A DNA stretch of 54,629 nucleotides from NCBI GenBank assembly GCA_027451505.1, contig DAIDJD010000013.1, positions 1-54,629 on the forward strand, written 5' to 3'. Origin of the DNA: a candidate division FCPU426 bacterium. GTDB taxonomy: Bacteria > Oederibacteriota > JAJYGY01 > DAIDJD01. The notes beneath the pieces were generated by a model. The model ran no database searches. It saw only the letters and a list, made by a program, of their open reading frames with translations, and was not told the DNA's origin. This document shows positions 2,538 through 50,781 of the stretch, one piece after another. Positions within the stretch are counted from its first letter, which is position 1. Every line of letters starts with the position of its first letter. Made by a program: the position numbers and the translations under genes.

Positions 2538-3152
2538 ATGGCCGACAAAAAGTCCCATTGGGAAGGGGTCTATGCGGACCGCGGGCCCGATGAAGTGAGC
2601 TGGTTCCAAGCCGACCCCGCCAAGTCCCTGGAGTTCATCCGCCTCGCCGGCCTTCCCAAGGGCGGTGCCTTCATCGACGTGGGCGGCGGGGCTTCGGTGC
2701 TCGTAGACAGGCTCCAGGAGGCCGGCTTCGAGGATCTCAGCGTCCTTGATATCTCCGCCAAGTCCCTTTCCTACTCCAAGGAACGCCTGAGCGCCGGGGC
2801 CGGTCGGGTCCATTGGTTCGAGGCCGACGTGCTTTCCTTCGCGCCGGATCGGGAGTTCGCCCTCTGGCATGACCGGGCGGTGTTCCACTTTTTGACGGAA
2901 CCCGGGGAAAGGGCCCGATACACGGCCCTGATGGGGCGGGCGGTCAAGATCGGCGGTCATGCCATCCTGGCCACCTTCGCCCCGGACGGGCCCGCGAAGT
3001 GCAGCGGCCTCGAAGTCCGCCGCTACGATGCGGCCTTGATGAAGGCCGAACTTGGGCCCGGTTTTGAACTGGTGCGCCAGGACGCCGAAACCCATGTCAC
3101 TCCCTGGGACCAGGAGCAGAGGTTCGCCTACTTCCTGTTCCGGAGGGTCTGA
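2538..3152 (+). CDS. Class I SAM-dependent methyltransferase
   Basis: The internal ATG at 2538 (MADKKSHWEGVY...) is preferred over the track start at 2442. Motif I is FIDVGGGASVLVDRL. Length is about 204 aa. Confidence 0.8.
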   Translation: MADKKSHWEGVYADRGPDEVSWFQADPAKSLEFIRLAGLPKGGAFIDVGGGASVLVDRLQEAGFEDLSVLDISAKSLSYSKERLSAGAGRVHWFEADVLSFAPDREFALWHDRAVFHFLTEPGERARYTALMGRAVKIGGHAILATFAPDGPAKCSGLEVRRYDAALMKAELGPGFELVRQDAETHVTPWDQEQRFAYFLFRRV

Positions 3153-3242
3153 AGGGCGTCCGCCCCGGCTTCCGTTTTTCTCGGCGATATGGTCGAATGG
3201 CCCGGATGCGGGAACCTCCACGATGACGGTCCGGGAGCGGCC

Positions 3243-3581
3243 ATGATGACGGCACCTATAAAAGCACCCCAAAAAACGCCCGTGAAGGCGCCGACGACGA
3301 CGCCCACGGCCCCGACGACGGTGCTGGAGGGCATTGAGATGTCCTCCCTGACCGAGCGCTGTTGTGTCGAGGCCCTGAACAACGACGTCTCCACGGTGCA
3401 GGACGTGATCCGGGTTTTTGTCCGCGTCTGCGGATACGACTTGGCCAAGGCCAAGGCCTATACCTTGAAGATCCACGTGGAGGGCAGAGCGGTCTGCTTC
3501 TGGGGGAGCAAGGAGCGCTGCCAACGGGTCATCCGGGCCTTCCGCGTCATCGGGGTGGACTGCAACCTTCTGGAGAACTGA
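3243..3581 (+). CDS. clpS: ClpS-like ATP-dependent Clp protease adaptor
   Basis: The C-terminal 80 aa (VEALNNDVSTVQDVIRVFVRVCGYDLAKAKAYTLKIHVEGRAVCFWGSKERCQRVIRAF) follow the ClpS core pattern. The start is uncertain: ATG 3243 was chosen, and the track start is 3189. Confidence 0.7.
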   Translation: MMTAPIKAPQKTPVKAPTTTPTAPTTVLEGIEMSSLTERCCVEALNNDVSTVQDVIRVFVRVCGYDLAKAKAYTLKIHVEGRAVCFWGSKERCQRVIRAFRVIGVDCNLLEN

Positions 3582-3630
3582 CCCGCCGAGGGGTGGGGGG
3601 CCTCCGAAGTCTGCTCCGTCCGGGCACGGG

Positions 3631-3660
3631 AAAAAAAAGGCCCGGCCGAGAGGCCGGGCC
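3631..3660 (-). terminator. Rho-independent terminator of the repeat-protein gene
   Basis: On the minus strand, GGCCCGGCC-tctc-GGCCGGGCC is followed directly by T8. It lies 28 nt after the stop at 3688. Confidence 0.75.
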
Positions 3661-3687
3661 TTGGGGGAACGCGTCGGTTCTTGGCGC

Positions 3688-4290
3688 TTACGGGGTGGCC
3701 GTGGCCACCGGGGTGGGCACCGCGGTGGGAGCTGCGGTGACCGTGGGCATCGGGGTCGGCGCGGTGGTCGGCGCCGCCGTCGGGGCCGGGGTTTCGTCCC
3801 CGTCGCTGTCCGCGTCCACCGGGGTCGGCCAGGGGGTTCCGTTCCAGGTCGGCCAGGGGGTCAGGACAGGCGTCGGGAAGGGCGTGCCATTCCAGGTCGG
3901 CCAGGGCGTGATCGCCGGGGTCGGGAAGGGCGTGCCGTTCCAGGTCGGCCAGGGCGTGATCGCCGGGGTCGGCTCCGGGGTCTCGGCGCTTTCGTTCTCA
4001 GTCGGCCACGGGGTGATCGCCGGGGTCGGGAAGGGCGTGCCATTCCAGGTCGGCCAAGGCGTGACCGCCGGGGTCGGGAAGGGCGTGCCGTTCCAGGTCG
4101 GCCAAGGCGTGACCGCCGGGGTCGGCCAGGGTGTGCCGTTCCAGGTGGGGAACGGCGTCACGGTGACGTTGGGGTGCGGAACAAACCGATATCCGAAATA
4201 GTCGTACGCGTGGGACAGCGAAGGCATCAGGGCCACGATCAGCCCCGCTAAGCCCAGCCATCGCACGACTTTCTTGGTGCCTTCGCGCAT
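3688..4290 (-). CDS. Secreted Trp/Pro/Thr-rich tandem-repeat protein (unknown family)
   Basis: ATG at 4290 with GGAGG 5 nt upstream. Signal-peptide-like N-terminus [28 protein letters not shown]. Seven tandem units of [15 protein letters not shown](I/V), then a Pro/Thr/Ala tail. It has its own sigma-54 promoter and terminator. Confidence 0.75.
3814..4158 (-). repeat. Coding tandem repeat: 48-nt unit x6 plus one degenerate 57-nt unit
   Basis: Near-identical units (ggccagggcgtgatcgccggggtcgggaagggcgtgccRttccaggtc) are visible directly. They encode the 16-aa protein repeat. Confidence 0.9.
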
Positions 4291-4340
4291 GGCGACCTCC
4301 ATTTTGAAACTTATGGGTGCGTTCCCCGGCCAACCGTAAG

Positions 4341-4356
4341 TGCAAGCGCCGTGCCA
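4341..4356 (-). promoter_or_regulatory. Sigma-54 (-24/-12) promoter: TGGCAC-ggcgc-TTGCA
   Basis: The reverse complement of 4341-4356 is TGGCACGGCGCTTGCA, an exact match to TGGCAC-N5-TTGCW. It lies ~50 nt upstream of ATG 4290. An NtrC-family activator with a GAFTGA motif is encoded next door. Confidence 0.7.
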
Positions 4357-4477
4357 CGCTTTGACCCATATGCACCAAGGGTTTTCCAAGAAAATTTCCC
4401 GCGACGCGTACAAATTTTTGAACCGAATGCGCTAATTTTCGAACTTCCCGTGTATTGGAATCACGCTTCCTTCCGGA

Positions 4478-5131
4478 TCAGCGCGCCGCCAAAATCTCGG
4501 CGCGCAGGGTCCAGACCCGCGCCGCCAGACTCGGATCGGTGGAGGCCGTTTCCAGGGGCTTGAGGGCCTCCAGGGCGGCGCGCCGCTTGTGGGATCCGTG
4601 CCAAAAGGCCCAGGCCAGGGCGTAACGGGCCTCGGCCAAGCGCGGCTCAAGGCTCAGGACGCTCTCGAACTCGACGGCGGCGGCCCCCGGCTGGCTGTGG
4701 GCGAGGTACACCAGGCCCAGGTAGTAATGCACCAGGGGCAGGCTGCGGTCGAGGCGGTTGGCCAGCCGCAGTTCGTTGAACGCGCTTCCCAGCTGGCCTT
4801 GGTCATAGTCCAGGCGGCCGAGGTAGTAATGGGTCGCGGGCATGGCCGGGGCCTGGGCCGCGGCGGCCTCCAGAAGGGCGCGCGCCTCGGCCAGACGGCC
4901 GAGATGGTACAGGCATTCCCCCAGGTAAAAGCGGGCCTCCAGGCTCTTGGGATCGGCCGCCAAAGCGGCGCGCAGGCCGGCCTCGGCGGCGTTGAGGCGC
5001 CCCGCCCTGAGATCGCGCACGCCGCGCAGGAAGTCGGCGCGGCCCGCGGTCTGGGCCCCGCAAAGGGGGGCGGCCAGGCAGGCGCCCAGCAGCCCCAGGA
5101 TCAGCCAACGTTCAACCGGCCTCGGAACCAT
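4478..5131 (-). CDS. Secreted TPR-repeat protein
   Basis: 217 aa; ATG at 5131. Signal-like WLILGLLGACLAAPLCGAQT. Repeated TPR-like A-x-x-x-Y/F-x-L-G helices. Overlaps the response-regulator gene by 20 nt. Confidence 0.8.
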   Translation of the reverse strand: MVPRPVERWLILGLLGACLAAPLCGAQTAGRADFLRGVRDLRAGRLNAAEAGLRAALAADPKSLEARFYLGECLYHLGRLAEARALLEAAAAQAPAMPATHYYLGRLDYDQGQLGSAFNELRLANRLDRSLPLVHYYLGLVYLAHSQPGAAAVEFESVLSLEPRLAEARYALAWAFWHGSHKRRAALEALKPLETASTDPSLAARVWTLRAEILAAR

Positions 5132-6461
5132 CGCACAGGCCCTCCAACGCGTATTTCTGGATCTTGTACTGGATGCCCGAGCGCGACAGCCCGAGCCTAC
5201 GGGCCGCCCGCGAACGGACTCCGCCGCTCTCCACGAGGGCCCGGCGGATGAGTTCGGATTCGGTGCGCTCCATGGCCTCGGCCAGGGTGAGGCCGCCCAC
5301 GGAAACGGCCCCGGCGGCGGCGTCGGGCGGCCGGGGCGCGAGCGGCTCCCCCCGGTTGAAGACCACGGCCTGCTCCACCAAATTCTGGAGCTCGCGCACG
5401 TTCCCCGGCCAGTGGTACCGCTCCAGCCCGGGCAGGCACTCCGGGTCCAGGCCCGGCCAGGGCTTTCCCTGGGCCGCGCAGAACTGGCGGCCGAAGTGCT
5501 CGGCCAGAAGGCGCACGTCGCCGCGGCGCTCGCGCAGGGGCGGCAGATGGATCCCCACGACGCCGAGGCGGTAGTAGAGGTCCCCGCGGAAGGCCCCCTG
5601 CGCGGCCAGGGCGGCCAGGTCTCGGTTGGTCGCCGCCACCAGGCGGAAGTCGGCCCGCAGCGTGCGCACGCCGCCCACGCGCTCGAATTCGCGCTCCTGA
5701 AGCACGCGCAGGAGCTTCACCTGCACCTCGGGGGGGATCTCGCCCACCTCATCGAGGAAGAGCACCCCTCCCCGGGCCATTTCAAAGCGCCCGGCGCGGG
5801 CCGCCACCGCCCCGGTGAAGGCGCCCTTTTCGTGCCCGAACAGTTCGCTCTCGAGCACGCCCGGGGCCAGGGCCGCGCAATGGACGCTCACGAAGGGCCC
5901 ATCGCGCCGGGGTCCCAGCCGGTGGAGGGCGCGGGCGGCCAGCTCCTTGCCGGTCCCGGACTCGCCGGTCAGCAGCACCGTGCTGGGGGCGGGCGCGGCC
6001 TGGCGCAGGGCCTCCAGGACGGAGGCCAGGGCCGGGCTGGAGCCCAGAAGGGCCCGCGGGCCCAGGTCCTCCTCGAGGCTGCGGCGCTTGCCCTCCTGGG
6101 CCCTCCGCCCCAGGGCCTTGCCCAGCTTCAGTTCGAGCTCCTCCATCAGGAAGGGCTTCACCAGGAAGTCCTCGGCGCCCAGGCGCATGGCGCGCACCGC
6201 CTCCTCCACCCCGCCGTGGGCCGTCACCACGAACACGGGCAGGTCCGGGTCGTTGCGGTGGATCTCCTCGAGCAGGCCGAGGCCGTCGAGTCCCGGCATG
6301 CGCAGGTCGGTCACCACCGCGTCGGCTCCGCGCCGGCCGAGCCATTCCAGGGCGCCCCGCCCGTCCGCGGCCTCGGCCACCTCGTGCCCGGCGGCGCCGA
6401 GCCAACTGCTCAGGGTCGCCCGCATTCCGGGGTCGTCGTCCACCACCAAAAGGGTGCTCAC
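5112..6461 (-). CDS. Sigma-54-dependent response regulator (NtrC family: REC + AAA+ + Fis-type HTH)
   Basis: GTG at 6461 with AGGAGG 5 nt upstream. REC domain (LLVVDDDPGMR...DLRMPGLDG), Walker A GESGTGKE, GAFTGA motif (GHEKGAFTGA), and a C-terminal HTH (AARRLGLSRSGIQYKIQKY). Confidence 0.92.
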   Translation of the reverse strand: MSTLLVVDDDPGMRATLSSWLGAAGHEVAEAADGRGALEWLGRRGADAVVTDLRMPGLDGLGLLEEIHRNDPDLPVFVVTAHGGVEEAVRAMRLGAEDFLVKPFLMEELELKLGKALGRRAQEGKRRSLEEDLGPRALLGSSPALASVLEALRQAAPAPSTVLLTGESGTGKELAARALHRLGPRRDGPFVSVHCAALAPGVLESELFGHEKGAFTGAVAARAGRFEMARGGVLFLDEVGEIPPEVQVKLLRVLQEREFERVGGVRTLRADFRLVAATNRDLAALAAQGAFRGDLYYRLGVVGIHLPPLRERRGDVRLLAEHFGRQFCAAQGKPWPGLDPECLPGLERYHWPGNVRELQNLVEQAVVFNRGEPLAPRPPDAAAGAVSVGGLTLAEAMERTESELIRRALVESGGVRSRAARRLGLSRSGIQYKIQKYALEGLCDGSEAG

Positions 6462-6470
6462 GCGTCCTCC

Positions 6471-7937
6471 TTAGGTCCCGCCGCGGGGCAGCCGCATGCG
6501 GAAAAGGGCGCCCCCTCCGGGGGCCGCGTCCGCCTCGAGGTCCCCGCCGTGGGCCTGGGCCGCCCGGCGCGCCAGCGCCAAGCCCAACCCGGTGCCCGCG
6601 GCCTTGGTGGTGAAGAAGGGCTCGAAGAGGCGGCCCCGGGCCTCCGGGGCCACGCCCGGGCCCTGGTCGGCGACCTCCAGGAGCGCGTCGCCGCCCTCGT
6701 GGCGCAGCCTGAGTGAGACGCGCCCGCCCGCGGGCATGGCCTGCAGCGCGTTCAGGCCCAGGTTGAGCAGGGCGCCCTCCAGAAGGGCCGGGTCGCAGCG
6801 CAGGATCCGCGGTTCCTCCGACAACGCTTCGACTTCGTGCGCCGACCCGGCGGTTTGGCGCAGGTCCTGCGCCAGGCGCTCGAGCAGGGCCCCCAAGTCG
6901 GCCTCGCGCAGGTCGGGTTTGGGCACCCGGCCGAGTTCGAGGAAGCGGCTGACCATGCGCTCCAGGCGCGCGACCTGGGAACGGATGTGGCCCAGGGGCC
7001 CCTCCGCTTCCGGTCGGGGCCCCAGCGCGCGCTCCAGCAGGTCGGCCTGCCCCCGGATCACGGTGAGGGGATTGCGCACCTCGTGGGCGATGGCCGAGGC
7101 CACCCGGCGCATCTCCTCGCTCCGGCTTTCGGCATGGTCCTTCTCCAGGCGCGCCTCCAGGTTGGCCAAGGTGAGGCTGCGCAGCGAGGCCGCCGCCGCG
7201 CTCAAGGCGCGGCTGAGTTCGTGGCCGCCGGGCCCGGGCCGGCCGGGCGGGGGCCCCCCGCCAAGGGCGCCTTCGAGCCAGCCCAGGGGCGAAAGAAGCC
7301 AGGCCGCCAGCCCCGCGCCCAGCACTAGGCACAGACCCAGCCCCAGGGCCCCCGCGGCCAGGCTGGCCCTGCGGAAGCCCGCCAGGACCTGCAGGTACGC
7401 CGGGTCCACAAGCATCTGCAGGATGAGGCCCCGGCCCAGCGGGGTGAACACCGACTGGTCGCGGGTGCCGAAGCTGGTCGGCCGCGGCGGATGCACCAAG
7501 GTCCAGCCCGCGCGCAACCGGGCCCAGTCGTCCGGTCCCAGTTCCGGGGTGAGGAACCCCGGCACGCGGTCTCCGGTGGCGTCGATCAGCACCAGGCCGC
7601 GGGAGTCCAGCACGGCCAGATCCCGGGCCAGGCCGGCCGAACGCGAGCCGTCCAGCGCCGCCTCCAGGACGCGGTCGCGCGTCCCGGCGGGCCCGGGCGC
7701 CGTGGCCAGGGCCCCACCCAGGCGCGCGGCCAGGAGCCGCGCCTCCACGGCGAGTTGCCGGTCCATCGCCGCGCGCAGCCCCCGGGCCACGCGGAGGTAC
7801 ACCCAAACGCCGGCGCCCGCCGACAGAAGGGTCCACAGCCCGGCCAAGCCTATGGCCAACTGCCAGCGCAACGACAGCCACCAAGGCGCTCCGGCGCGGG
7901 CCCGGCGGGCCGTCCCAACGGCGCTCAGCGTCCCCAT
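6471..7937 (-). CDS. Sensor histidine kinase (two TM segments, periplasmic domain, HisKA + HATPase_c)
   Basis: ATG at 7937 is preferred; it overlaps the upstream stop by 13 nt (the track start is 8006). H-box ASAIAHEVRNPL; G-boxes DQGPGV and GTGLGLA. Confidence 0.85.
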   Translation of the reverse strand: MGTLSAVGTARRARAGAPWWLSLRWQLAIGLAGLWTLLSAGAGVWVYLRVARGLRAAMDRQLAVEARLLAARLGGALATAPGPAGTRDRVLEAALDGSRSAGLARDLAVLDSRGLVLIDATGDRVPGFLTPELGPDDWARLRAGWTLVHPPRPTSFGTRDQSVFTPLGRGLILQMLVDPAYLQVLAGFRRASLAAGALGLGLCLVLGAGLAAWLLSPLGWLEGALGGGPPPGRPGPGGHELSRALSAAAASLRSLTLANLEARLEKDHAESRSEEMRRVASAIAHEVRNPLTVIRGQADLLERALGPRPEAEGPLGHIRSQVARLERMVSRFLELGRVPKPDLREADLGALLERLAQDLRQTAGSAHEVEALSEEPRILRCDPALLEGALLNLGLNALQAMPAGGRVSLRLRHEGGDALLEVADQGPGVAPEARGRLFEPFFTTKAAGTGLGLALARRAAQAHGGDLEADAAPGGGALFRMRLPRGGT

Positions 7938-9811
7938 CCTATCCCCGCGTACCCCAGCATGGTGGCGTTGCTGAAGGCCTGGATGTTGCTGGTGTCGGCG
8001 GCCCACTGGGCGCCGACGAACACGGAGAAGCCGCCCGGCAGCCCGCGGTCGAGTTCCAGGTCGGCGTAGCCCTGCTCGTCAAGGCGCCCGCCCGCGGGCA
8101 GGTTGGGCGGCGAGGCCGGCCACCAGAGGTAGGCCTGGGGGGTCCACACCCCGGTGAAGGACACGTAAAAGCCCTTGGGCAGCATCAGGCGCGCGTTGAT
8201 CGAGGCGAAGGCGTTGTCGTAGCCCCACATCGTGTCCCCGGGCCACACGGGCCGGGCCAGGCGGCCGCCCAGGATCAGTCCGAGCAGGTCGCCCCGACGC
8301 GACATCCAGGTGGCCCCCAGGGTGGGCAGAAGGCTGTTGTCGTCGTAGGGCGCGTAGGTGGGGAAGCGCTCGGCCAAGGCCTGGATCCCCAGGGAAAACG
8401 GCTGCATCCCCAGGACGCGGCCGTCGAGCTCGGTGCGCGCGGAGACGACTTCGTAGTTGGCGGGCGCGTTGTTCCAATGGATGAAGTTCTGGCGCACCCC
8501 GCCGTTGCCGTCCAGGAGGGCGCTCCAGCGCGGATTGAAGGTGTAGCGCACCAGGGCGTCCAGGCTGGAAAGGGGTTGCCCGACGTTGAGGGGCTGGCCC
8601 GGGTACTGGTAGGGAACGATGAACATGCCGTAGGACAAGGTCGCGGCCACGCGCTTGCCCAAGGCCAGTCCGTAGCTGAGGTTGAGTTCGTCCTGGCTTC
8701 CCAGGGAGCGGGTCCGCACAACGCCGGCGGCGGTGTCGCTCTGGTTCACCTGGGGCCCGGCCATGAGGCGCACCGAGCCGTGCAGGCCCATGCCGGCCTG
8801 GGCCGGTACCTGGCCCAGCTCGGACTGGGCCAGGAGGCCGAACCCTCCGGCCGGCCCCAGCGCCGCGAGCGAGGCCAGGGTGTCCCGGGCCGCGGCGGCC
8901 TGGCCGGTGCGCTGCTGGTATTTGGCCTTGAGGTAGAGCCCTCCGGGATGGCGTGGATCCAGGGCCAGGCAACGTTCCAGCGCCCGGAGCATGCCCGGCC
9001 CGTCTTTGAGGCGGTAGCGGGCCAGGGCCAGGCTATACCAGCAGTCCGGCGCCTCGGGCGAGACCGCGCAGGCCCCGCGGAAACAGGCCTCGGCCCGTTT
9101 GGCGTCCCCGCGCTTGAGCCAGGCGTTGCCCCAGGCGATGTCCCGGGCGGCCTCCGGTCCCGGCGTCTGGATCCCGGGCCGGGCCAGGACACGCGCCAGG
9201 GAGGCGTCCTGGGGATCCAGGGCGCGGGCCCGGGCCAGGGCCTTGCGCGCCTCCTGGTCGCGTCCCAGGCGCTCCAGGCAGATGGCTTCGCCCTTCCATC
9301 CCAGGGGGCTGCGCGGATCCTGCCGCACCGCGGCGCCGAAGGCGGCCAACGCATAGGTGACTTGGCCGGCCTGGAGGCCCTGCTCGCCCACGGCCAGGGC
9401 ATAGGGCTCCCCCAACCTGAGCAGCAGCGCGGCGCTGGCGTGGTCGCTGGGCGAACGCTCCAGCGCCGCCTCGGCCCAGCGCCGCGCGGAGCGGCGCCGG
9501 CCCAAGACAAAGGCGCACGCGGCCACCCCGTAGTAGGCGGCGCCTTCGCCGGGTTCGCATTGCGCGGCCAGGACAAAGGCCCGCATGGCTTGGACATAGG
9601 CGTGGCGCAGGTACCAGGCGCGCCCCTGGGCCAGGAAGTCTTGGGCGCAAGGCGTCGCGGCCCGCGCGCTGCCTGAGAACACCAAAACCACCAGCACCCA
9701 AAACCACAATCGTTTGTATTTTTTAAGATAAAGCTCGCGCGCGCTTCTGAACTCAAAATCCTTTAAAAAACGATTGTCTGTGGCCTGCGCACCGCTGGGA
9801 CTTCCTGGCAA
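7925..9811 (-). CDS. TPR-repeat protein with a predicted C-terminal outer-membrane beta-barrel
   Basis: The N-terminal ~300 aa hold multiple TPR-like helical pairs after a signal-like KKYKRLWFWVLVVLVFSGSARA. The C-terminal ~300 aa have an alternating-hydrophobic strand pattern rich in G/Y/W/N and end ...MLGYAGIGWGR. The start is uncertain: TTG at 9811 in the track, with no in-frame ATG before the signal peptide. Confidence 0.65.
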   Translation of the reverse strand: MPGSPSGAQATDNRFLKDFEFRSARELYLKKYKRLWFWVLVVLVFSGSARAATPCAQDFLAQGRAWYLRHAYVQAMRAFVLAAQCEPGEGAAYYGVAACAFVLGRRRSARRWAEAALERSPSDHASAALLLRLGEPYALAVGEQGLQAGQVTYALAAFGAAVRQDPRSPLGWKGEAICLERLGRDQEARKALARARALDPQDASLARVLARPGIQTPGPEAARDIAWGNAWLKRGDAKRAEACFRGACAVSPEAPDCWYSLALARYRLKDGPGMLRALERCLALDPRHPGGLYLKAKYQQRTGQAAAARDTLASLAALGPAGGFGLLAQSELGQVPAQAGMGLHGSVRLMAGPQVNQSDTAAGVVRTRSLGSQDELNLSYGLALGKRVAATLSYGMFIVPYQYPGQPLNVGQPLSSLDALVRYTFNPRWSALLDGNGGVRQNFIHWNNAPANYEVVSARTELDGRVLGMQPFSLGIQALAERFPTYAPYDDNSLLPTLGATWMSRRGDLLGLILGGRLARPVWPGDTMWGYDNAFASINARLMLPKGFYVSFTGVWTPQAYLWWPASPPNLPAGGRLDEQGYADLELDRGLPGGFSVFVGAQWAADTSNIQAFSNATMLGYAGIGWGR

Positions 9812-9992: not shown

Positions 9993-10373
9993 CTACCTCA
10001 AAAGTTTTTTCAACTCACGGGTGATGAGCTTGGGCAGCTTGGCTTTGAACGCGGCCACCGCATCCTTGGCGATGCGTCGGGCTTCGCGCTGCTTCACATA
10101 ACCCTTCAAAGGAACCGCGGAGGCCGAGACGCCTTTGGGGCGGCCGGATCCACGCTTCGCGGCACCCTCCTTCGTCGGCCGGGGTCCCTTGGGCCGTCCC
10201 GGCTTGTTCTTGGATCCCTTGGGCCGACCTGGCTTGTTCTTGGATCCCTTGGGCCGACCCGGCTTGTTCTTGGATCCCTTGGGCCGTCCCGGCCCGCGCT
10301 TGCCGCGGCCACGACGCGGGCGTTCGGCGCCGACTTCGTGCTTGGGAGTGATTTCCGTGGACATTTCCGCCAT
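9993..10373 (-). CDS. AT-hook repeat DNA-binding protein (HMGA-like GRPKGSKNK repeats)
   Basis: 126 aa; ATG at 10373 with AGGAG 6 nt upstream. Contains RGRGKRGPGRPKGSKNKPGRPKGSKNKPGRPKGSKNKPGRPKGPRP...GSGRPKG, which gives five GRP cores. Basic helical C-terminus. Confidence 0.75.
   Translation of the reverse strand: MAEMSTEITPKHEVGAERPRRGRGKRGPGRPKGSKNKPGRPKGSKNKPGRPKGSKNKPGRPKGPRPTKEGAAKRGSGRPKGVSASAVPLKGYVKQREARRIAKDAVAAFKAKLPKLITRELKKLLR
10186..10295 (-). repeat. Coding 30-nt tandem repeat (3 full copies plus a partial one)
   Basis: The unit cccttgggccgNccYggcttgttcttggat is visible directly. It encodes KPGRPKGSKN. Confidence 0.85.
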
Positions 10374-13954: not shown

Positions 13955-15885
13955 GCCCCGGACCCCGGTCCGAAGCCGCCGTTGAGGACGGGCCAGCGGC
14001 ACCAGGTGCGCGGATCGACGCTGTGGTCGTCCAGGTGCAGGGACACCGCCAGGCGCTCGCGCTTCCACTGGGAGCCCGACCACAGCGCGTAGAAGGAGCG
14101 CGTCCACTCCGCGAGGTCGTCCCCGGGTTCGCCGGGGAAGTCGCCGCGCAGGGCCTCCAGCGCGCCCTCGGGGGGCAGGCGCCGGACCACGGCGGAGCGC
14201 TCCAGCGCGTCGAGCACCGCGTAGGGCATCAGGTCGTCCTCGTCGGTCTGGCGGTCCTCCAGGGGCCGCAGCTCGGCGGTGGGAGCCTGGTCGTTGACCG
14301 CCTTGAGGGCCGGGACCGGCCCCAACTCCCGCGGACCCCGCTCCTCCATCCACCGCAGCCAGCCCCTGAGGAAGTCCTTGCCCACCCCGGCCACCGGGGC
14401 CAGGCCGCCGCTGGTGTCACCGTCCATGGAGGTGTACCCCGTGGCCGCCTCGCTGCGGTTGTTCGTCGCCAGCAGAAGCCGGCCCTCGGCGTTGGCCAGG
14501 GTCCACACCGCGGGGGACCGCACCCGGGCCTGGAGGTTCTGCAGCGTGAGGTCGTCCTCGGGCCAGCCCAAGGGCCGCCCCAGGACGCCTTCGGCCAGGC
14601 TCCGGTAGGCGTCGACGAGGTGTTGCACCTCCACGGCGGCGTGGGCCGAGCCCACGGCGCGGGCCACCCCCTCGGCCGCGGACCGGGTCGTGGCCGAGGA
14701 GTGCGCCGTGGCTTGGTAGAGGGTGCGCAGCAGCACGGGCATGGCCGCGGCTTGGCCGCCGGCGGCCGCGATCCCGGGAACGTCCGGAAGCCGCGCGGCG
14801 AAGCCCTCGAAGCCGAGCTCGTCGACGGCGAAAGCGGCCATCAGCCGGACCAGCAGCGCGCAGGCGGCCGAGTCCGCGCCCCCGGAAAGGCTCAGGCAGA
14901 ACCCGCGGGCCCGGCTTTTGCGGAGGTAGTCGAAGATCCCCAGGGCCCCGGCCCGCGCGAAGTCCTCGCGCGGATCGGCAGCCTCGTGGGCGGCCGGGTC
15001 GCCCAGGGACGGCGGGGGGGGGGAGGCCGGCAGGGCCGGCGGGAAGGGGTCCCGCACCAGACCCGCACCCTCCACCGGGGCGGCGCGCCGGACTTCGACG
15101 TCGGCGCAGACCAGCCCCACGTCGCGGTAGCTGAAGCGCGCTCCGCGGGCCGCCACCGCCCCGTCCGGGTGGAGGAGGAAGGCGCCCCCGTCGTAGACCG
15201 CGCGCCCGCTTTCGTTGCCCATGAGGTTGGCGTAGGCGTAGGCCAAGCCGTGGTCCGCGGCCGCCCCGACCCCCAGGCCCAGACGGACCGCCTGCTTTCC
15301 CGGGGCGTAGTGGCTCGCCGCCGGGCCGAAGATGAGGTTGGCCCCGCGCCGGGCCAGGCGCGGGGCGGGCCTTTCCGGCCCGCCCCAGGCGTCCTCGCAG
15401 ATCTCGAAACCCAGCACGGCCCCGCCGCAGGCGAAGAGCAGGTCCCCCACGGGGACCTCGCGCCCCAGAACCTCCGCGCGCTCCACCCGGCCCGGCTCCC
15501 AGGCCCGGAACCAGCGCGGCTCGTAGTGGATGCCGTCCCGGGCCAGGCGCTGCTTGGGCACCAGGCCCAAAAGGCGGCCGTCCGCGCACACCGCGACCGT
15601 GTTGTAGAGCGCCCCCCCCAGCTCGAAGGGCAGCCCAAAGGCCGTGCACAGCCCCTGGGTGCGCCCCACCAGGACGCCCAGTTCGGCCAGGGCCCTCTCC
15701 CGCAGGAACGGGGCGAGGAAGAGGTCTTCGCAGCCGTAACCCGTGACGGCCAGTTCGGGAAGGCAGAGGTGGGAGACGCCCGCGGCCCGGGCGAGGTCGA
15801 GGGCCCGGGCGAGGTTCCCCCGGTTGGCGGCCCAGGCCAGCGGCGTCTGGTTCACGAACGCCGCGCCCAAGCGCACGGTGCTCAC
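13951..15885 (-). CDS. nadE: Glutamine-dependent NAD+ synthetase (CN-hydrolase domain + NAD synthetase domain)
   Basis: The GTG at 15885 overlaps the upstream stop (GTGA); 644 aa. The N-terminal nitrilase-like domain has LCLPELAVTGY and FEICEDAW. The C-terminal domain has the PP-loop LSLSGGADSA. The 1370-aa track ORF is an artefactual upstream extension. Confidence 0.9.
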   Translation of the reverse strand: MSTVRLGAAFVNQTPLAWAANRGNLARALDLARAAGVSHLCLPELAVTGYGCEDLFLAPFLRERALAELGVLVGRTQGLCTAFGLPFELGGALYNTVAVCADGRLLGLVPKQRLARDGIHYEPRWFRAWEPGRVERAEVLGREVPVGDLLFACGGAVLGFEICEDAWGGPERPAPRLARRGANLIFGPAASHYAPGKQAVRLGLGVGAAADHGLAYAYANLMGNESGRAVYDGGAFLLHPDGAVAARGARFSYRDVGLVCADVEVRRAAPVEGAGLVRDPFPPALPASPPPPSLGDPAAHEAADPREDFARAGALGIFDYLRKSRARGFCLSLSGGADSAACALLVRLMAAFAVDELGFEGFAARLPDVPGIAAAGGQAAAMPVLLRTLYQATAHSSATTRSAAEGVARAVGSAHAAVEVQHLVDAYRSLAEGVLGRPLGWPEDDLTLQNLQARVRSPAVWTLANAEGRLLLATNNRSEAATGYTSMDGDTSGGLAPVAGVGKDFLRGWLRWMEERGPRELGPVPALKAVNDQAPTAELRPLEDRQTDEDDLMPYAVLDALERSAVVRRLPPEGALEALRGDFPGEPGDDLAEWTRSFYALWSGSQWKRERLAVSLHLDDHSVDPRTWCRWPVLNGGFGPGSGA

Positions 15886-17324
15886 CCCAGCCCCACCAGG
15901 GAAAGGGAGGAGATGGTGTCCCCCATGCCCACCAGCGTCACCGGCTTGTCGATGAGGATGGTGGGCACCGCCACCACATGGAAGTCCGCGCAGGAGCCCA
16001 TGCCGGTCTCGGCCAGGGCGTCCAGCCCGTGGGCCGCGGCCAGGTGCGCGGCCAGGGCCTTCAACTCGGACAGGCTGTGCTCCGACACTTCGCGCCCGTG
16101 CGCCCACAGGAGGTTTTCGGCGCGGTCCAGGCTTCCGGTGCCGGCCTTGGCCGCCGCCACCGTGGCCGCGAAGGCCATGCCGTCGCGGTTGGCGCGGGGC
16201 TCGAACACCGGGCCCCGGGCGGCCTCGGCGGGCCGGATCAGGGTGATGTAAAGGCCGAACATGTGCAGTTGGACGCGCTTGAGCCCGAGCGCCTGGTAGA
16301 CCTTGAGGAGCCCCTTGAACAGGTTCACCGCGCCCAGGGACTGGCACTCGCGCGCCAGGGACTGCTCGCCCAGGACCTCGAGGATGCCGATGAGCTCCTG
16401 CTCGTTGCAGCCCACGCTGTCGGCGCGGGGGGCCAGGAAGCGGGCCAGCTCCTCGCGGATCTTCAGGTCCTGGGTGCTGGCGAACTCGAAATGGACCACC
16501 GCGCCGGGGTGGGCCTCCTTCCACCTTGAGACCCGGGCCCACGAGTCCGCGATGCGCGCCAGCCCGGAGCCGGGGGCGCCGCCCGTTAGCGGCTCGGTGA
16601 GCATCTGATAGCCGCTGAGCAGGATGAAGTCGAGGGGGTGCCCCGGCCGGGAAAGCGCCGCGTCGAAGGCGTCGTCCAGTTCCAGGCGGAAGTTGAGGGG
16701 GTCGTAGGTGGCGATGAAGCGGTTGCTCTTGGGGCAGGTGAGTTTCAGGCCGCCCAGCTCCAGCTCCGCGCCCTTGTCGAACTCGAGGATCCAATGGATG
16801 AGCGGGCGGTCGCCGGGCCTGTCCACGCCCCGGGCCGGGACCAGGGCCCCCGCGGAGTCCGTGCTGACCAAGCTGTCGTGGTCCAGGAAGAGGCCGGCCT
16901 GCTGGGCGGGCAGGCTGGCGCAGTGCACATAGACCCTGCGGGCGCCGGCCACGGCCAGGACATTGGCGATGATGCCCCCCTGGCCGCCCATCTGCAGGCG
17001 GTCGTAGCCCAGGCGTGCGGCCATCCAATCGAAAGTGGACTCGCGGGCCACCAGCCATTCCTGGGCCACGCCCTTGGAGAAGCACTCCACGAAGCCGCGC
17101 AGCAGGTCCACGGGTTCGTCGATGCGCCGGGCCCCCTTGTTGAGGACCTGCCATTCGTCCGCGCCCAGGTCGCCCATCCATTCCACCACCCGCCCCGGGG
17201 CCACCTTGAGCACGGCGTCGATGTTGGCGTTGAAGACGCTGGCCACCCCGGAGACGCGCCGGAAGCGCTCCAGGTGTCCGGGCACGTGGGCGTAATGTTC
17301 CTTCCAGGCGCGCTTGAGATCCAT
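15882..17324 (-). CDS. ADP-dependent sugar kinase (ADP-dependent glucokinase/phosphofructokinase family)
   Basis: 480 aa; ATG at 17324. Block-by-block match to Pyrococcus ADP-GK as I remember it: FNANIDAV, RLQMGGQGGIIANVL, VHFEFASTQDLKIREE...VGCNEQELIGILEVLGE, RVQLHMFGLYITL, and the C-terminal VGMGDTISSLSLVG. Confidence 0.85.
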   Translation of the reverse strand: MDLKRAWKEHYAHVPGHLERFRRVSGVASVFNANIDAVLKVAPGRVVEWMGDLGADEWQVLNKGARRIDEPVDLLRGFVECFSKGVAQEWLVARESTFDWMAARLGYDRLQMGGQGGIIANVLAVAGARRVYVHCASLPAQQAGLFLDHDSLVSTDSAGALVPARGVDRPGDRPLIHWILEFDKGAELELGGLKLTCPKSNRFIATYDPLNFRLELDDAFDAALSRPGHPLDFILLSGYQMLTEPLTGGAPGSGLARIADSWARVSRWKEAHPGAVVHFEFASTQDLKIREELARFLAPRADSVGCNEQELIGILEVLGEQSLARECQSLGAVNLFKGLLKVYQALGLKRVQLHMFGLYITLIRPAEAARGPVFEPRANRDGMAFAATVAAAKAGTGSLDRAENLLWAHGREVSEHSLSELKALAAHLAAAHGLDALAETGMGSCADFHVVAVPTILIDKPVTLVGMGDTISSLSLVGLG

Positions 17325-20678: not shown

Positions 20679-22529
20679 CTACTTTCTCTTGGGCCTGAAG
20701 ATGTCGGTGGCGTGTCCGAGGTGGACGTCGACGGCGCCCAGCAGGGTCTCGTTGAGCGTGGGGTGGGGATGCACGGTCAGGCTGACGTCCTCGGCCAGGG
20801 CGCCCATCTCCACGGCCAGGGCGTATTCGCTGATGAGTGCGCCGGCCTCCCAGCCCACGGCCCCGGCCCCCAGGATGCGCCCGGTGGCCTTCTCCACGAT
20901 GACCTTGCTCAGGCCCTCGGTGCGGCCCAAGGCGTGGGCCTTGCCGTTGGCGGCCCAGGGGTAGCGGCCGATCCCGACGTCGAGGCCCTTCTGCTTGGCC
21001 TCCTCCTCGGTGACGCCCACCCACGCCAGCTCCGGGTCCGTGAAGACCACCGCGGGCATGGCCCGCACATCGTAGACGGTGCGGCGGCCGGCGATGGCCT
21101 CGACCGCCACGCGGGCCTCGGCGTGGGCTTTGTGCGCGAGCATGGGCTCGCCGGCGATGTCCCCGATCACGAAGATGGAGGGCTCCGCCGTGCGCATCTG
21201 GGCGTCGTGTTCGATGAAGCCCTTGGCGTCGACCCGCACCCGGGTGCGGTCCAGGCCCAGGGAATCCGAGACCGGCCGGCGGCCCACCGACACCAGCACC
21301 CGGTCGAAGACCTGGACCGGCTCCACGCCCTCCCCGGAGAGGGTCGCCGTGACGCCCCCCGGGCCGGGTTCGAGCTTCTCGACCTTGGTGTTGAGGTGGA
21401 TGGCCTTGAACTGCCCGCGCAGGTGGGCCTCCAACGGGCGCACCAGATCCCGGTCGGCGGCCATGAGCAGGCCGGGCATGAATTCGACGACCGTGACCTC
21501 GGAGCCCAGGGCCGCGTAGACGCAGGCCATCTCCAGGCCTATGTACCCGCCGCCCACGGCCAGCAGGCGCTTCGGCACGTCCCGGAGCTCCAGGGCCCCG
21601 GTGGAATCCATGATGCGCGGGTCGCCCAGGGCCTTCCAGGGCCCGGGCATGGCCGGGACGCTGCCCGTGGCGATGACGCAAAAGTCGAAGGCCACTTCGG
21701 TCCGCGCCGGGGCCTTGCCGCCCTCCCCGGGGGACACGGACAGGGTGTGCGCATCCTTGAAGCGCGCCTCCCCCTCGATGACCTCGACCTTGCGGGCCGC
21801 CGCCACCTGGGCGATGCCGGTCCCCAGGGTGCCGACGAACCCGTCCTTGTGGGCGCGCAGTCGGTCCAGGTCGATCTTGGGCGCGCCGAAGTCCACCCCG
21901 ATGGAGGGCGCGTGGCGCGCCTCGTTGATGAGCTTGGCGACGTGCAGCAGGCCCTTGCTGGGGATGCAGCCGCGCAGGGTGCACACGCCGCCCAGGCGCG
22001 TCTCCTTGTTGATCAAGGTGACCCGGAACCCGAGGTCCGCGGCGTAGAAGGCCGCCGCGTAGCCGCCCGGTCCGGCGCCGATGACGGCCACGCGCAGCTT
22101 GGAGGCCTCCTCAGGGCTGAGCCCGGCGTGGCCGTGGCCCGGGACGGGGGCCTCCTGGGTGGGCGCGGGAGCCGCCGCGATCGGAGCCGCCGCCGCCGGT
22201 GCCGGGGGCGCCGGAGAGGGCGCCGGTGCGGGGGAGGGAACGGGCGCGGAGGCCGCCGGCGCTGGGATGGCCTTCGGAGCCGCCGGGGCTTCGGCCGCGT
22301 CGGGCTCGTAGGACACGATGGGCTGGCCCGGCCGGACCTTGTCCCCGGGCTTGATGTGGACCACGGACACGCGCCCGGAAAAGTTCGCGGCCACGTCCAT
22401 CACGGCCTTGTTGGTCTCGATCTCGGCCAAGCTCTGGCCCTTGGAGACGGCCTCTCCCGCCTTCACCGAGACGCCGACCACCTCGCCGGAGTCCACCCCC
22501 TCGCCCAGGTTCGGTAGCTTGAAGTCCAT
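20679..22529 (-). CDS. lpdA: Dihydrolipoyl dehydrogenase (E3) with an N-terminal lipoyl domain
   Basis: 616 aa. Lipoyl domain (LAEIETNKAVMDV), an Ala/Pro linker, then the E3 core (VIGAGPGGYAAAF, GGVCTLRGCIPSK, C-terminal HPHPTLNE). Confidence 0.92.
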   Translation of the reverse strand: MDFKLPNLGEGVDSGEVVGVSVKAGEAVSKGQSLAEIETNKAVMDVAANFSGRVSVVHIKPGDKVRPGQPIVSYEPDAAEAPAAPKAIPAPAASAPVPSPAPAPSPAPPAPAAAAPIAAAPAPTQEAPVPGHGHAGLSPEEASKLRVAVIGAGPGGYAAAFYAADLGFRVTLINKETRLGGVCTLRGCIPSKGLLHVAKLINEARHAPSIGVDFGAPKIDLDRLRAHKDGFVGTLGTGIAQVAAARKVEVIEGEARFKDAHTLSVSPGEGGKAPARTEVAFDFCVIATGSVPAMPGPWKALGDPRIMDSTGALELRDVPKRLLAVGGGYIGLEMACVYAALGSEVTVVEFMPGLLMAADRDLVRPLEAHLRGQFKAIHLNTKVEKLEPGPGGVTATLSGEGVEPVQVFDRVLVSVGRRPVSDSLGLDRTRVRVDAKGFIEHDAQMRTAEPSIFVIGDIAGEPMLAHKAHAEARVAVEAIAGRRTVYDVRAMPAVVFTDPELAWVGVTEEEAKQKGLDVGIGRYPWAANGKAHALGRTEGLSKVIVEKATGRILGAGAVGWEAGALISEYALAVEMGALAEDVSLTVHPHPTLNETLLGAVDVHLGHATDIFRPKRK

Positions 22530-22532
22530 GGC

Positions 22533-23834
22533 TCAGTTCACCAGTTCGAACGGGTTGCCCAGCACCTCGCAGACGCGCTTCAGGAAGCGCGCCCCGTCGG
22601 CGCCGTCGATCACGCGGTGGTCGTAGCTCAACGAGAGCCCCAGCATCAAGCGCGCCTCGATCTTGCCGTCGACCATCTGCAGCTCCTCGCGCGCGCGGGA
22701 GATCCCCAGGATGGCCACCTCGGGCCAGTTGACGATGGGGGTGAAGAAGGTCCCCCCTATGCCGCCGAGGTTGCTGATGGTGAAGACCCCGCCCTGCATC
22801 TCCTCCAGGGAGATGCGGCGGCTGCGCACCTTCTCCGCGAGGCCCTCGAGGTCCCGGGCCAGCTCGACGATGCCCTTCTTGTCGGCGTCCCTCAGCACGG
22901 GGACCATCAGCCCGGACGGGCTGTCCACGGCGATTCCGATGTGGCGCCACGGCTTGGTGACGATCTCCCCGCGGGCCATGTCGACCGAGCTGGCGAAATG
23001 GGGGAACTCGTCCAGGACCCTGGTGACCGCCTTCACCGCCAGCACGGTCATGGTCACCTTGCCCGGCTGCCCCTTGCGGCCGTCGCTGAAGCGTTTGCGG
23101 GCCGATTCGGTGCCGGTGATGTCGGCCAGGTCGAATTGGGTGACCCTGGGGGACTGGGCCCAGGCCCTGGCCATGCCCTCGGCGGTGGCCCGGCGCACGC
23201 CCTTGAGCGGGCTGCGCTCGACGGCACCCCACTTCGAGAAGTCCGGCAGGGGGGGCGGAGCGGCCGACCCGGCCGCGGGACCCGCGGCGAGGGCCCGCTT
23301 GACGTGGGCCTTCACGTCGGCCTCCAGCACCCGCCCCTGGGGGCCCGAAGCCGCCACCAGGCTTAAGTCCACCCCCAGTTCGCGGGCGAATTTGCGCACC
23401 GCGGGCGAAGCGGGCACGACCCGCCCCGGGGCGGCCTCGGAAGCCGCGACCGGACGGGGCGGGTCCGGGGGAAGCGGCGCCGCGGCTGGGGGGCCGGCCG
23501 GCGCGGGGGCCGGTCGCGGAGCCCGCTCCGGGGGCGCCGCCGGCGCGGAAGCAGGGACAGGGGCGGGAGCCGGGGAGGAAGCCGGGGCCGCTCCGGAGGC
23601 GGGCTCGTAGGCCACCACGACCTGCCCGGGGCGCACCTTGTCGCCCGGCTTCACGGGCACGGACGTGATCACGCCGTCCTCGGGGGCGGGGACGTCCATG
23701 ACGGCCTTGTTGGTCTCCACCTCGAGCATGCCCTGCCCCTTGGCGACACGGTCCCCGGGCTTGACCGAAACCCCGACCACGTCCCCGGAATCGACGCCTT
23801 CGCCCAGGGCGGGCAGTTTGAATTCCTTGGCCAT
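22533..23834 (-). CDS. aceF: Dihydrolipoamide acetyltransferase (E2)
   Basis: 433 aa. One lipoyl domain (MLEVETNKAVMDV), an E3-binding domain (ASPAVRKFARELGVDLSLVAASGPQGRV) and a catalytic domain with SLSYDHRVIDGADGARFL. Confidence 0.92.
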   Translation of the reverse strand: MAKEFKLPALGEGVDSGDVVGVSVKPGDRVAKGQGMLEVETNKAVMDVPAPEDGVITSVPVKPGDKVRPGQVVVAYEPASGAAPASSPAPAPVPASAPAAPPERAPRPAPAPAGPPAAAPLPPDPPRPVAASEAAPGRVVPASPAVRKFARELGVDLSLVAASGPQGRVLEADVKAHVKRALAAGPAAGSAAPPPLPDFSKWGAVERSPLKGVRRATAEGMARAWAQSPRVTQFDLADITGTESARKRFSDGRKGQPGKVTMTVLAVKAVTRVLDEFPHFASSVDMARGEIVTKPWRHIGIAVDSPSGLMVPVLRDADKKGIVELARDLEGLAEKVRSRRISLEEMQGGVFTISNLGGIGGTFFTPIVNWPEVAILGISRAREELQMVDGKIEARLMLGLSLSYDHRVIDGADGARFLKRVCEVLGNPFELVN

Positions 23835-23843
23835 GCTCTGCTC

Positions 23844-26528: not shown

Positions 26529-26662
26529 GATTCCTCGCCGTCGCGGGACAGATGCCGCCTTCCCGGGAGGCCGCGGGCGGCTCCGGGAGTCCCAAAAGAA
26601 CATCATTTCAAGGATTTTTCGTCGCACCGGGCGGTCTCGGACCGGGCCCGGTGCAGCCCCAA

Positions 26663-26691
26663 ATTGTACCTTACCAGGGGGCCCTTGACCA
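26663..26691 (-). promoter_or_regulatory. Candidate sigma-70 promoter for aceE (TGGTCA-17 nt-TACAAT)
   Basis: Read on the minus strand. It sits ~135 nt upstream of the aceE ATG and just downstream of the preceding terminator. This is a hexamer match only. Confidence 0.35.
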
Positions 26692-26709
26692 CCCCCGTAG
26701 GCCCCCCAC

Positions 26710-26740
26710 AAAAAAACGGGGTCCCCCTTGGGGGACCCCG
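26710..26740 (-). terminator. Rho-independent terminator of the SpoVG-like gene
   Basis: On the minus strand, CGGGGTCCCCC-aa-GGGGGACCCCG is followed directly by T7. Confidence 0.8.
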
Positions 26741-26790
26741 CATGTCTGAACACCACCCATGGGGTCAGTACTCGTAGATTTTCGGATTCT

Positions 26791-50097: not shown

Positions 50098-50781
50098 TCA
50101 GCCCCGCAGGCGGTAGCCCACCCCGGGTTCGGTGAGGATCCATTCGGGCTGGGCGGGATCGGCCTCAAGTTTCTTCCTCAAACTGGCGGCGTAGATGCGC
50201 AGATAGTGGCTGTGTTCGACCGCGTTCGGCCCCCAAACGCGCTTGAGCAGCTCGCGCTGGGTCACCACCTTGCCCAGGTTCAGCGCCAAGACCCTCAGGA
50301 AATCGAACTCCGTCGCGGTCAGCTTGACCGGCGCCCCGGAACGCTCCACCAAGTGCCCGGCTAGGTCGATGCGCAAGGGCCCCGCCTGGACCACGGGCTC
50401 GGGCCGCTCCCCCCGGCTGTGGCGCTCCAGTACCCTCAGCCGGGCCAGCAACTCGGGCACGCTGAAGGGCTTGGTCAGGTAGTCGTCGGCCCCCGCGTCC
50501 AAAAGGGCCACCTTGTCGGCCTCGGAATCCTGCACCGTGAGGATGAGCACGGGCACCTGGCTCCATTGGCGCAGGCGCTCGAGGACGCGCAGGCCGGGGG
50601 TGTCGGGCAGCCCCAGGTCCAGGACCACCAGTTCGGGGGCCTGGGTGGCGGCCTGGCGCAGGCCCGCCTCCCCGTCGGATGCCTCCACCACGGCGTAGCC
50701 GGCGCCCTCAAGGCCGGCGCGAAGGAGACGCCGTATGGCCGTCTCGTCGTCCACGACCAGCACCCTTCGGGCGTTCTTCAT
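50098..50781 (-). CDS. kdpE: KdpE response regulator (OmpR family)
   Basis: 227 aa. The ATG at 50781 overlaps the kdpD stop (ATGA). REC domain plus a winged helix (…LTEPGVGYRL). Confidence 0.9.
   Translation of the reverse strand: MKNARRVLVVDDETAIRRLLRAGLEGAGYAVVEASDGEAGLRQAATQAPELVVLDLGLPDTPGLRVLERLRQWSQVPVLILTVQDSEADKVALLDAGADDYLTKPFSVPELLARLRVLERHSRGERPEPVVQAGPLRIDLAGHLVERSGAPVKLTATEFDFLRVLALNLGKVVTQRELLKRVWGPNAVEHSHYLRIYAASLRKKLEADPAQPEWILTEPGVGYRLRG

Follow-up and report, generated by a model that had tools for sequence, protein, structure and literature searches.

A predicted sigma-54 promoter ahead of a secreted repeat-protein gene, conserved with an adjacent NtrC-type activator gene in related metagenomic loci

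What controls the gene of a secreted repeat protein that lies directly behind a regulatory operon in an uncultured bacterium? The question is raised by a 54,629-nt stretch of a candidate division FCPU426 bacterium (contig DAIDJD010000013.1; the whole stretch is referred to here as the window). On its minus strand, a -24/-12 element of the kind used by sigma-54 RNA polymerase precedes a gene for a Trp/Pro/Thr repeat protein, and the genes for a histidine kinase and an NtrC-type activator lie upstream on the same strand. A first-pass annotation of the window had proposed that kinase, activator and a single secreted target form a self-contained regulon. The comparison of sequences described below indicates that the element very probably functions as a sigma-54 promoter under the control of the adjacent activator. 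The promoter region and the transcription unit behind it contain the following features:

4477..4291: gap of 187 nt between the small tetratricopeptide repeat (TPR) gene and the repeat gene, holding the promoter
4356..4341, minus strand: sigma-54 promoter element TGGCACGGCGCTTGCA, with GG at 4355-4354 and GC at 4343-4342
4330, minus strand: predicted transcription start, ~12 nt downstream of the -12 C, placed by standard sigma-54 geometry
4300..4296, minus strand: ribosome-binding site GGAGG, read from the sequence, 5 nt before ATG 4290
4290..3688, minus strand: target gene for a 200-aa secreted protein with a signal peptide ending ...SLSHA|YDY, about seven 16-aa repeats and a Pro/Thr/Ala tail
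3662..3637, minus strand: intrinsic terminator from a terminator scan, with an 11-bp stem (9 G-C pairs) followed by a T run

The pattern TGGCAC-N5-TTGCW specifies 11 of its 16 positions, and the element agrees with every one of them, with GG and GC exactly 10 nt apart. When both strands of the window were searched, TGGCACGGCGCTTGCA was the single exact match; dinucleotide shuffles gave a mean of 0.04 exact matches, and 4 of 100 shuffles contained at least one. Not one site with a single mismatch was found in the 54,629 nt, and 15 sites have two mismatches. The total of 16 against 18.9 expected is at chance level. The consensus sequence with the right GG/GC spacing, the lack of a second such site in the window (exact or with one mismatch) and a location about 50 nt before ATG 4290 had all been claimed in the first-pass annotation, and all three hold, the distance being 50 nt. 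The same is true of the AT-richer DNA upstream of the promoter, as the GC content is 51% in 4301-4500 versus 71% in the whole window. A promoter scan of 3100-5200 found no sigma-70-like promoter. From the predicted start, the 5' untranslated region of the repeat gene would be ~40 nt long. In every sequence feature by which the -24/-12 class is recognized, the predicted promoter agrees with that class.

Is this element more than an isolated match? To answer this, eight related loci, all metagenomic, were compared: six closer ones (L082-L089) and two distant ones, L318 (46% GC, from an NCBI metagenome-assembled genome) and L319 (56% GC). Their activators are 52-72% identical to that of the window (~52-54% in the two distant loci), and the GC content of the genomes is 46-71%. 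The relaxed pattern NGG[CT]A[CT]-N5-TTGCN was scanned on both strands of the eight loci. Throughout L082-L089, matches were found in the orientation of the cluster only, and only before the downstream repeat gene or the first gene of the cluster. L318 contained two further relaxed matches, located inside genes or on the opposite strand, and these were ignored. Seven of the related loci have a -24/-12 element ahead of the gene for the secreted Pro-rich repeat protein. It lies 40-46 nt before that gene in L082, L084, L085, L088 and L089, 52 nt before the start codon in L318 and 66 nt in L319; with the window included, the spacing is 40-52 nt in all of these eight loci but L319. A second element was found ahead of the cluster in five relatives (L082, L083, L084, L086/L087), where it usually precedes a paralogous secreted Pro-rich protein and probably also drives the regulatory genes.

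The 12 sites from nine loci (window included) give the consensus TGGCACGnGnCTTGCnTT. GGCA and TTGC are invariant, the 5-nt spacer is variable, and all 12 sites point in the direction of the genes. Since the intergenic DNA around the related elements is otherwise unalignable, this pattern fits sigma-54 recognition rather than shared ancestry. Conservation of the promoter spans genomes of 46-71% GC and activator identities down to 52%.

Transcription from a sigma-54 promoter raises the further question of where an activator would bind. Three candidate sites were found upstream of the element:

4423..4408, minus strand: predicted proximal upstream activating site GTTCAAAAATTTGTAC, centred ~85 nt upstream of the predicted start
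4444..4429, minus strand: predicted distal, weaker copy GTTCGAAAATTAGCGC, displaced from the proximal site by 21 bp, or two helical turns, and centred ~106 nt upstream of the start
4386..4376, minus strand: conserved box GAAAACCCTTG, in the stretch that separates the promoter from the upstream sites

The two upstream sites emerged from a position-blind expectation-maximization (EM) motif search of 130 nt of DNA ahead of each of ten promoters, with 60 shuffled sets for reference. The search returned a 16-nt A/T-centred dyad similar to GTCAAAAAAAnnGGAC, with an information content of 13.9 bits versus 10.88 ± 0.36 for the shuffles (maximum 11.81). The dyad extends over 16-18 bp and has the form GTC-N10-GAC. 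Its distance from the -24 T is nearly constant, with a start 66-69 nt upstream in 9/10 promoters, whereas in the shuffled sets at most 3/10 sites fell within 3 nt. With L318 and L319 added, the dyad is in place at 11 of 12 promoters, and in L319 the site pair is displaced upstream by about two helical turns. The palindrome is plain in the lower-GC genomes (TGTCCAAATTTTAGGCA, GCCAAAAATTTGGACA and TGTCAAAATTTTGGGCA), and the dyad is common to both types of promoter, that of the downstream gene and that upstream of the cluster. Most relatives have a second, weaker match to the position weight matrix at 85-91 nt upstream of their -24 T; in the window, a repeat finder independently reported a direct repeat (4413-4423 and 4434-4444) with a spacing of 21 nt. 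In Desulfovibrio vulgaris, most sigma-54 promoters are less than 100 nt from the nearest activator site (PMC4641369), and by that measure the spacing between activator site and promoter in the window is typical.

The conserved box was obtained by EM on the 50 nt before the promoter (9.07 bits versus 7.61 ± 0.30 for the shuffles, maximum 8.69). In nine of the twelve promoters, the distance from its start to the -24 T is 29-31 nt, a clustering that shuffles reached for five promoters at most. The box may be a DNA-bending site similar to that of integration host factor (IHF), or a further half-site. Bending proteins often act at positions like this one, and the box fits only the 3' half of the IHF consensus. 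Another dyad, GGAA-N6-TTCC, had been put forward in the first-pass annotation as an enhancer or IHF site. It does exist at 4470..4457, with only 4+4 bp, below the size that the repeat finder reports, yet it is absent from every related locus, and this candidate was rejected.

Which protein would act at these sites? The cluster upstream of the promoter contains four genes:

9682..7925, minus strand: large envelope protein, 585 aa as called, with ~8 TPRs followed by a predicted C-terminal beta-barrel of ~290 aa
8006..6471, minus strand: sensor histidine kinase (HisKA, E = 5.3e-13; HATPase_c, E = 1.7e-22)
6461..5112, minus strand: sigma-54 enhancer-binding response regulator, 449 aa, with receiver, AAA+ and Fis-type helix-turn-helix (HTH) domains
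5131..4478, minus strand: small TPR protein, 217 aa (Pfam TPR_19, TPR_16 and TPR_11), last gene of the regulatory operon

Together with the repeat gene, these make five co-directional genes separated by short gaps. The response regulator has matches above the Pfam cut-offs to Response_reg (E = 2.4e-30), Sigma54_activat (5.5e-65), AAA_lid_14 and HTH_8 (6.6e-13), and it carries GAFTGA. The claim in the first-pass annotation that the same-strand genes upstream include a GAFTGA response regulator and a histidine kinase is borne out by the Pfam domains and by this motif. D52, T80, K102, Walker A (GESGTGKE) and GAFTGA are invariant in the orthologues. Judged by its sequence, the protein has all the features that define the response-regulator enhancer-binding proteins of the NtrC family, and its gene lies ~760 nt from the -24/-12 element. 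Its bit scores are below the NCBIfam equivalog cut-offs of AtoC (443 vs 714), NtrC (420 vs 559), ZraR (375 vs 760) and PrsR (376 vs 502.6). As it falls below all four, it belongs to an unnamed subfamily.

The orthologue group of the activator (P0002-P0012, 60-72% identity) is entirely metagenomic, and the next-best proteins are at most 54% identical. Homologues at E <= 1e-80 number in the thousands; among the matches listed from species-representative genomes there was no orthologue, the best being 49% identical. The HTH segment SRSxLQYKxxK is invariant across the orthologue group that has the dyad. This invariance and the sharing of the dyad fit the binding of one activator to both promoter types.

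The kinase probably starts near 7937, which would give ~488 aa; its orthologues are 465-486 aa long. It has a transmembrane segment at residues 220-238. The small TPR protein has an N-terminal signal sequence or hydrophobic segment, with a possible lipobox LLGAC, and its gene directly follows that of the activator in all related loci. The order of kinase, activator, small TPR protein, a gap of 110-200 nt and a secreted Pro-rich protein is kept in seven related loci, while the sequence of L083 ends after the small TPR gene. As for the large TPR gene, six loci have it upstream of these genes, and L318 has it downstream. L086 (4080..6905 and 8140..9369) is an exception, as a 941-aa protein with a long Thr/Ser/Pro-rich repeat stretch directly follows the small TPR protein there, without a sigma-54 site. 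The same locus encodes a kinase fused to the TPR domain, with a group II intron reverse transcriptase nearby.

The product of the promoter would be an unusual protein. The reading frame of the repeat gene has a GC content of 0.89 at third codon positions, and its DNA contains a 48-nt tandem repeat in 6.6 copies. The mature protein consists of 27% Pro, 23% Thr and 8% Trp. Pfam and NCBIfam give no family for it, and a single-sequence AlphaFold model (mean predicted local distance difference test, pLDDT, 45.9) contains the signal helix and otherwise no fold. GAGG or GGAGG precedes the start codon of the counterpart genes in all related loci. The terminator at 3662..3637 starts 25 nt past the stop codon, and the repeat gene is taken to be monocistronic because this strong terminator directly follows it. 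A ClpS-like adaptor gene (3189..3581, plus strand) converges on the repeat gene, and the hairpin at 3637-3662 could serve as a terminator for both.

This bears on the regulon that the first-pass annotation had described. The part that joins a sigma-54 promoter to an adjacent activator is supported by conservation across the related loci. The single secreted target stands for the window, given the terminator directly after the gene, but not for the relatives, where a second promoter with the same dyad lies ahead of the cluster. As to the self-contained character of the regulon, it goes beyond what the window holds, since no rpoN was found there.

Several points speak against the assignment of this promoter to sigma-54 and the adjacent activator. 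Neither the window nor the related loci contained an RpoN box, and the presence of RpoN in the organism is presumed from that of an intact activator. The dyad was assigned to the adjacent activator by guilt by association. When the upstream regions were tested simply for shared 8-mers, the result was not significant by itself, as the top word occurs in 8/10 of them and 21 of 200 shuffles reached that count; the support for the dyad comes from the information content of the 16-nt motif and its positional constancy, not from this test. Within the window, no sigma-54 or sigma-70-like promoter was detected before the large TPR gene. The sigma-54 promoter that precedes the cluster in relatives is absent here. 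Read-through from the small TPR gene could also add to transcription of the repeat gene.

The promoter might be a real sigma-54 promoter and yet be activated by an enhancer-binding protein encoded elsewhere, with the adjacent two-component system regulating something else. Bacteria of this kind often encode many such activators, as the thousands of homologues also illustrate, and binding of the dyad by the adjacent activator is something that we infer. This explanation is unlikely, however, because promoter, dyad and activator gene co-occur in nine loci that range from 46 to 71% GC, the group shows no variation in the HTH recognition segment, and in five relatives the dyad is also found ahead of the cluster itself, the usual signature of autoregulation. 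It is harder still to believe that the repeat gene is mostly transcribed by read-through from the upstream operon or from an unrecognized promoter, with the -24/-12 element playing a minor part. The five same-strand genes have short gaps, and the terminator scan found no terminator between the stop of the small TPR gene (4478) and the promoter, which would allow for it. Nevertheless, three positionally conserved elements in an otherwise unalignable gap are hard to explain without promoter function, and L318 keeps promoter and dyad despite a different downstream gene order.

That the match is a chance occurrence, or the site of an unrelated factor with no role for sigma-54, is barely credible. 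An exact match did occur in 4/100 shuffled windows, and rpoN was not found in the sequences compared. However, the chance of a relaxed match is ~2e-3 per 150-nt region (an estimate from the degeneracy of the pattern), while the element is present in five gaps ahead of the cluster and in every complete downstream gap with a retained repeat gene, seven in number. Its orientation is always right, the variable 5-nt spacer lies between the invariant GGCA and TTGC, and an intact activator is encoded ~760 nt away.

If the element is a sigma-54 promoter under the adjacent activator, the switch would most likely work as follows. RNA polymerase with sigma-54 would sit in a closed complex on the -24 GG and the -12 GC. 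The membrane kinase (8006..6471) would sense an envelope or periplasmic signal, probably jointly with the small periplasmic, possibly lipidated, TPR protein and the outer-membrane TPR/beta-barrel protein, and would phosphorylate Asp52 of the response regulator (6461..5112). The phosphorylated activator would then assemble on the tandem dyads at 4423..4408 and 4444..4429 and be brought to the polymerase by DNA looping, perhaps aided by a bend at the box (4386..4376). Using ATP and its GAFTGA loop, it would open the promoter, and transcription would begin near 4330 and end at the hairpin (3662..3637).

How does this arrangement compare with known systems? The nearest logic is that of PrsK/PrsR/PrsT (Haft et al. 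2006, PMC1569441). The PEP-CTERM genes described there are single-gene operons for secreted proteins, preceded by an upstream motif and a sigma-54 site and controlled by a kinase/activator/TPR trio. Both systems comprise a transmembrane kinase, an NtrC-type activator and a TPR protein, and in both, each target is an operon of one gene whose product is secreted and biased in composition. They also share a long intergenic region with an activator motif and then a -24/-12 site tens of nucleotides before the start. However, the proteins of the window fall below the NCBIfam cut-offs in bits (PrsR 376 vs 502.6, PrsK 87.9 vs 300, PrsT 44.8 and 51.7 vs 312.2). The targets in the window and in L082, L084, L085, L088, L089, L318 and L319 have no PEP motif, C-terminal transmembrane helix or Arg cluster. 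No exosortase was seen in the cluster (a genome-wide search was not made), and the part of PrsT is divided here between two proteins, one small and periplasmic, the other with TPRs and a beta-barrel.

In ZraS/ZraR-zraP, an envelope-stress system (reviewed in PMC4987338), an NtrC-type two-component system likewise controls one adjacent small exported protein, and the relatives of the window resemble ZraSR in controlling their own operon from a second sigma-54 promoter. The genes are co-directional here, whereas those of ZraSR-zraP are divergent, and the activator scores 375 against a cut-off of 760 bits. The target is a Pro-rich repeat protein rather than a helical chaperone of the ZraP/CpxP type, and two TPR proteins are added. 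With NtrB/NtrC at glnAp2 and AtoS/AtoC, the system shares the domain architecture of the activator, the TGGCAC-N5-TTGCA promoter and tandem dyads ~80-110 nt upstream at whole-helical-turn spacing. It differs from these in its A/T-centred GTC-N10-GAC dyad, its unrelated target and its scores below the cut-offs. The large TPR protein resembles BcsC, PgaA, PelB and the Slam/type XI proteins in its predicted N-terminal TPR solenoid and C-terminal beta-barrel. The barrel has no sequence-family match, no polysaccharide synthase is adjacent, and the TM-scores to BcsC are low. In a broad survey, sigma-54 was seen to govern mainly the cell exterior (PMC3162934), and the link of this cluster to the cell exterior agrees with that view.

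The large TPR/beta-barrel protein has few relatives. Its Pfam TPR matches are confined to the N-terminal half; the C-terminal 300 aa gave no Pfam match even at E = 10, and a word-indexed protein search returned nothing for this domain. An all-against-all HMMER comparison found only nine representatives of the barrel domain (7925..8827 in the window; P0121-P0129) in 1.84 billion clustered proteins. In view of this small number and the missing Pfam match, the domain is lineage-restricted. An AlphaFold model built from a seven-sequence alignment (pLDDT 81.4) has 17 helices followed by 15 long strands. Using Foldseek, the barrel was matched to the E. coli porin 2x9k (TM 0.60, normalized to the target), and the whole model aligned weakly to BcsC (9b8a/9b8h, TM 0.23-0.25). 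On this modelling, the protein is most likely an outer-membrane TPR and beta-barrel protein. A role towards the Pro-rich proteins, be it sensing, anchoring or export, is conjecture.

The downstream secreted Pro-rich protein diverges fast among the loci. The protein of L089 has the same repeats as that of the window, and L082 has PTFNGTP/PTFSGTP repeats. GTPGxLPPPPPTP-type repeats are found in L084, L085, L088 and L318, and PFPTP and APGKSGT repeats in L319. A word-indexed search of 5.8 billion proteins found no homologue of the window protein, and back-translated repeat patterns gave 600 matching stretches in species-representative genomes, none of which was confirmed. A strict DNA pattern for PTWNGTPxPTP had one match, in Streptomyces, attributed to chance; a WPTW(N/D)GTP pattern gave 62 single matches in metagenome contigs, none with two or more repeats. 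The one true homologue, that of L089 (63% identity over 147 aa, E = 2e-50), was reached via synteny. Its absence from the results of the protein searches is probably due to compositional filtering, and repeat proteins of such low complexity are effectively invisible to word-indexed searching. An exact look-up of two window proteins in a contig index returned no record. A composite pattern of dyad and promoter gave 86 matches in species-representative genomes, about the number expected by chance, and none had both a Pro-rich downstream gene and a nearby activator.

The Pro-rich proteins at the head of the cluster in the relatives have a conserved C-terminal tail, ATPFPCLLCP...WW(R/K)(R/K)DQxLMELNAADLE (L082 3088..3702, L084 3149..3730, L083 3438..3698, L085 3..242). 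A weaker tail of this CLLC type is found in the downstream repeat proteins of L084, L085 and L088, and the window protein is without it. The slot of the CLLC-tail gene is occupied in the window by a gene for a 126-aa AT-hook-like protein (10373..9993, minus strand), which has four PGRPKGSKNK repeats and a basic helical tail, and this gene has its own terminator-like hairpin. This could be a nucleoid protein that binds AT-rich DNA in a genome of 71% GC. Elsewhere in the window are a protein of the ADP-dependent phosphofructokinase/glucokinase family (17324..15882, minus strand; PF04587, E = 1.3e-67), a family that is mostly archaeal and eukaryotic, and, as housekeeping context, a complete pyruvate dehydrogenase E1-E2-E3 operon (20679..26756, minus strand) and a KdpD sensor kinase (50778..53453, minus strand). 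The pyruvate dehydrogenase E1 has identities of no more than 63%, to proteins from many different phyla.

Taken together, the locus offers an ordinary type of bacterial switch, here placed over an uncharacterized protein family in an uncultured lineage. It provides a comparatively validated sigma-54 promoter and a predicted enhancer motif for an uncharacterized activator subfamily, which are of use for annotating the lineage and for regulon prediction, and it adds nothing new about sigma-54 control itself. A wider reading, tentative and rather doubtful, is that the promoter is the output of an undescribed envelope module of this lineage. In such a module, the TPR/barrel and periplasmic TPR proteins would sense, and possibly export, hypervariable Pro-rich proteins, the kinase and its sigma-54 activator would set their production, and the CLLC tail could be a sorting signal. 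If true, the module would be a counterpart of the PEP-CTERM/Prs and Slam systems, with no sequence relationship to either. Of greater interest is what the switch controls. The secreted Pro/Thr(/Trp)-rich repeat proteins form a quickly diverging family that escapes standard protein searches altogether, and the family is linked genetically to a pair of TPR proteins, of which one is a predicted outer-membrane barrel with almost no relatives. With one promoter, one activator and one product, the system offers a tractable handle on the function of these repeat proteins.

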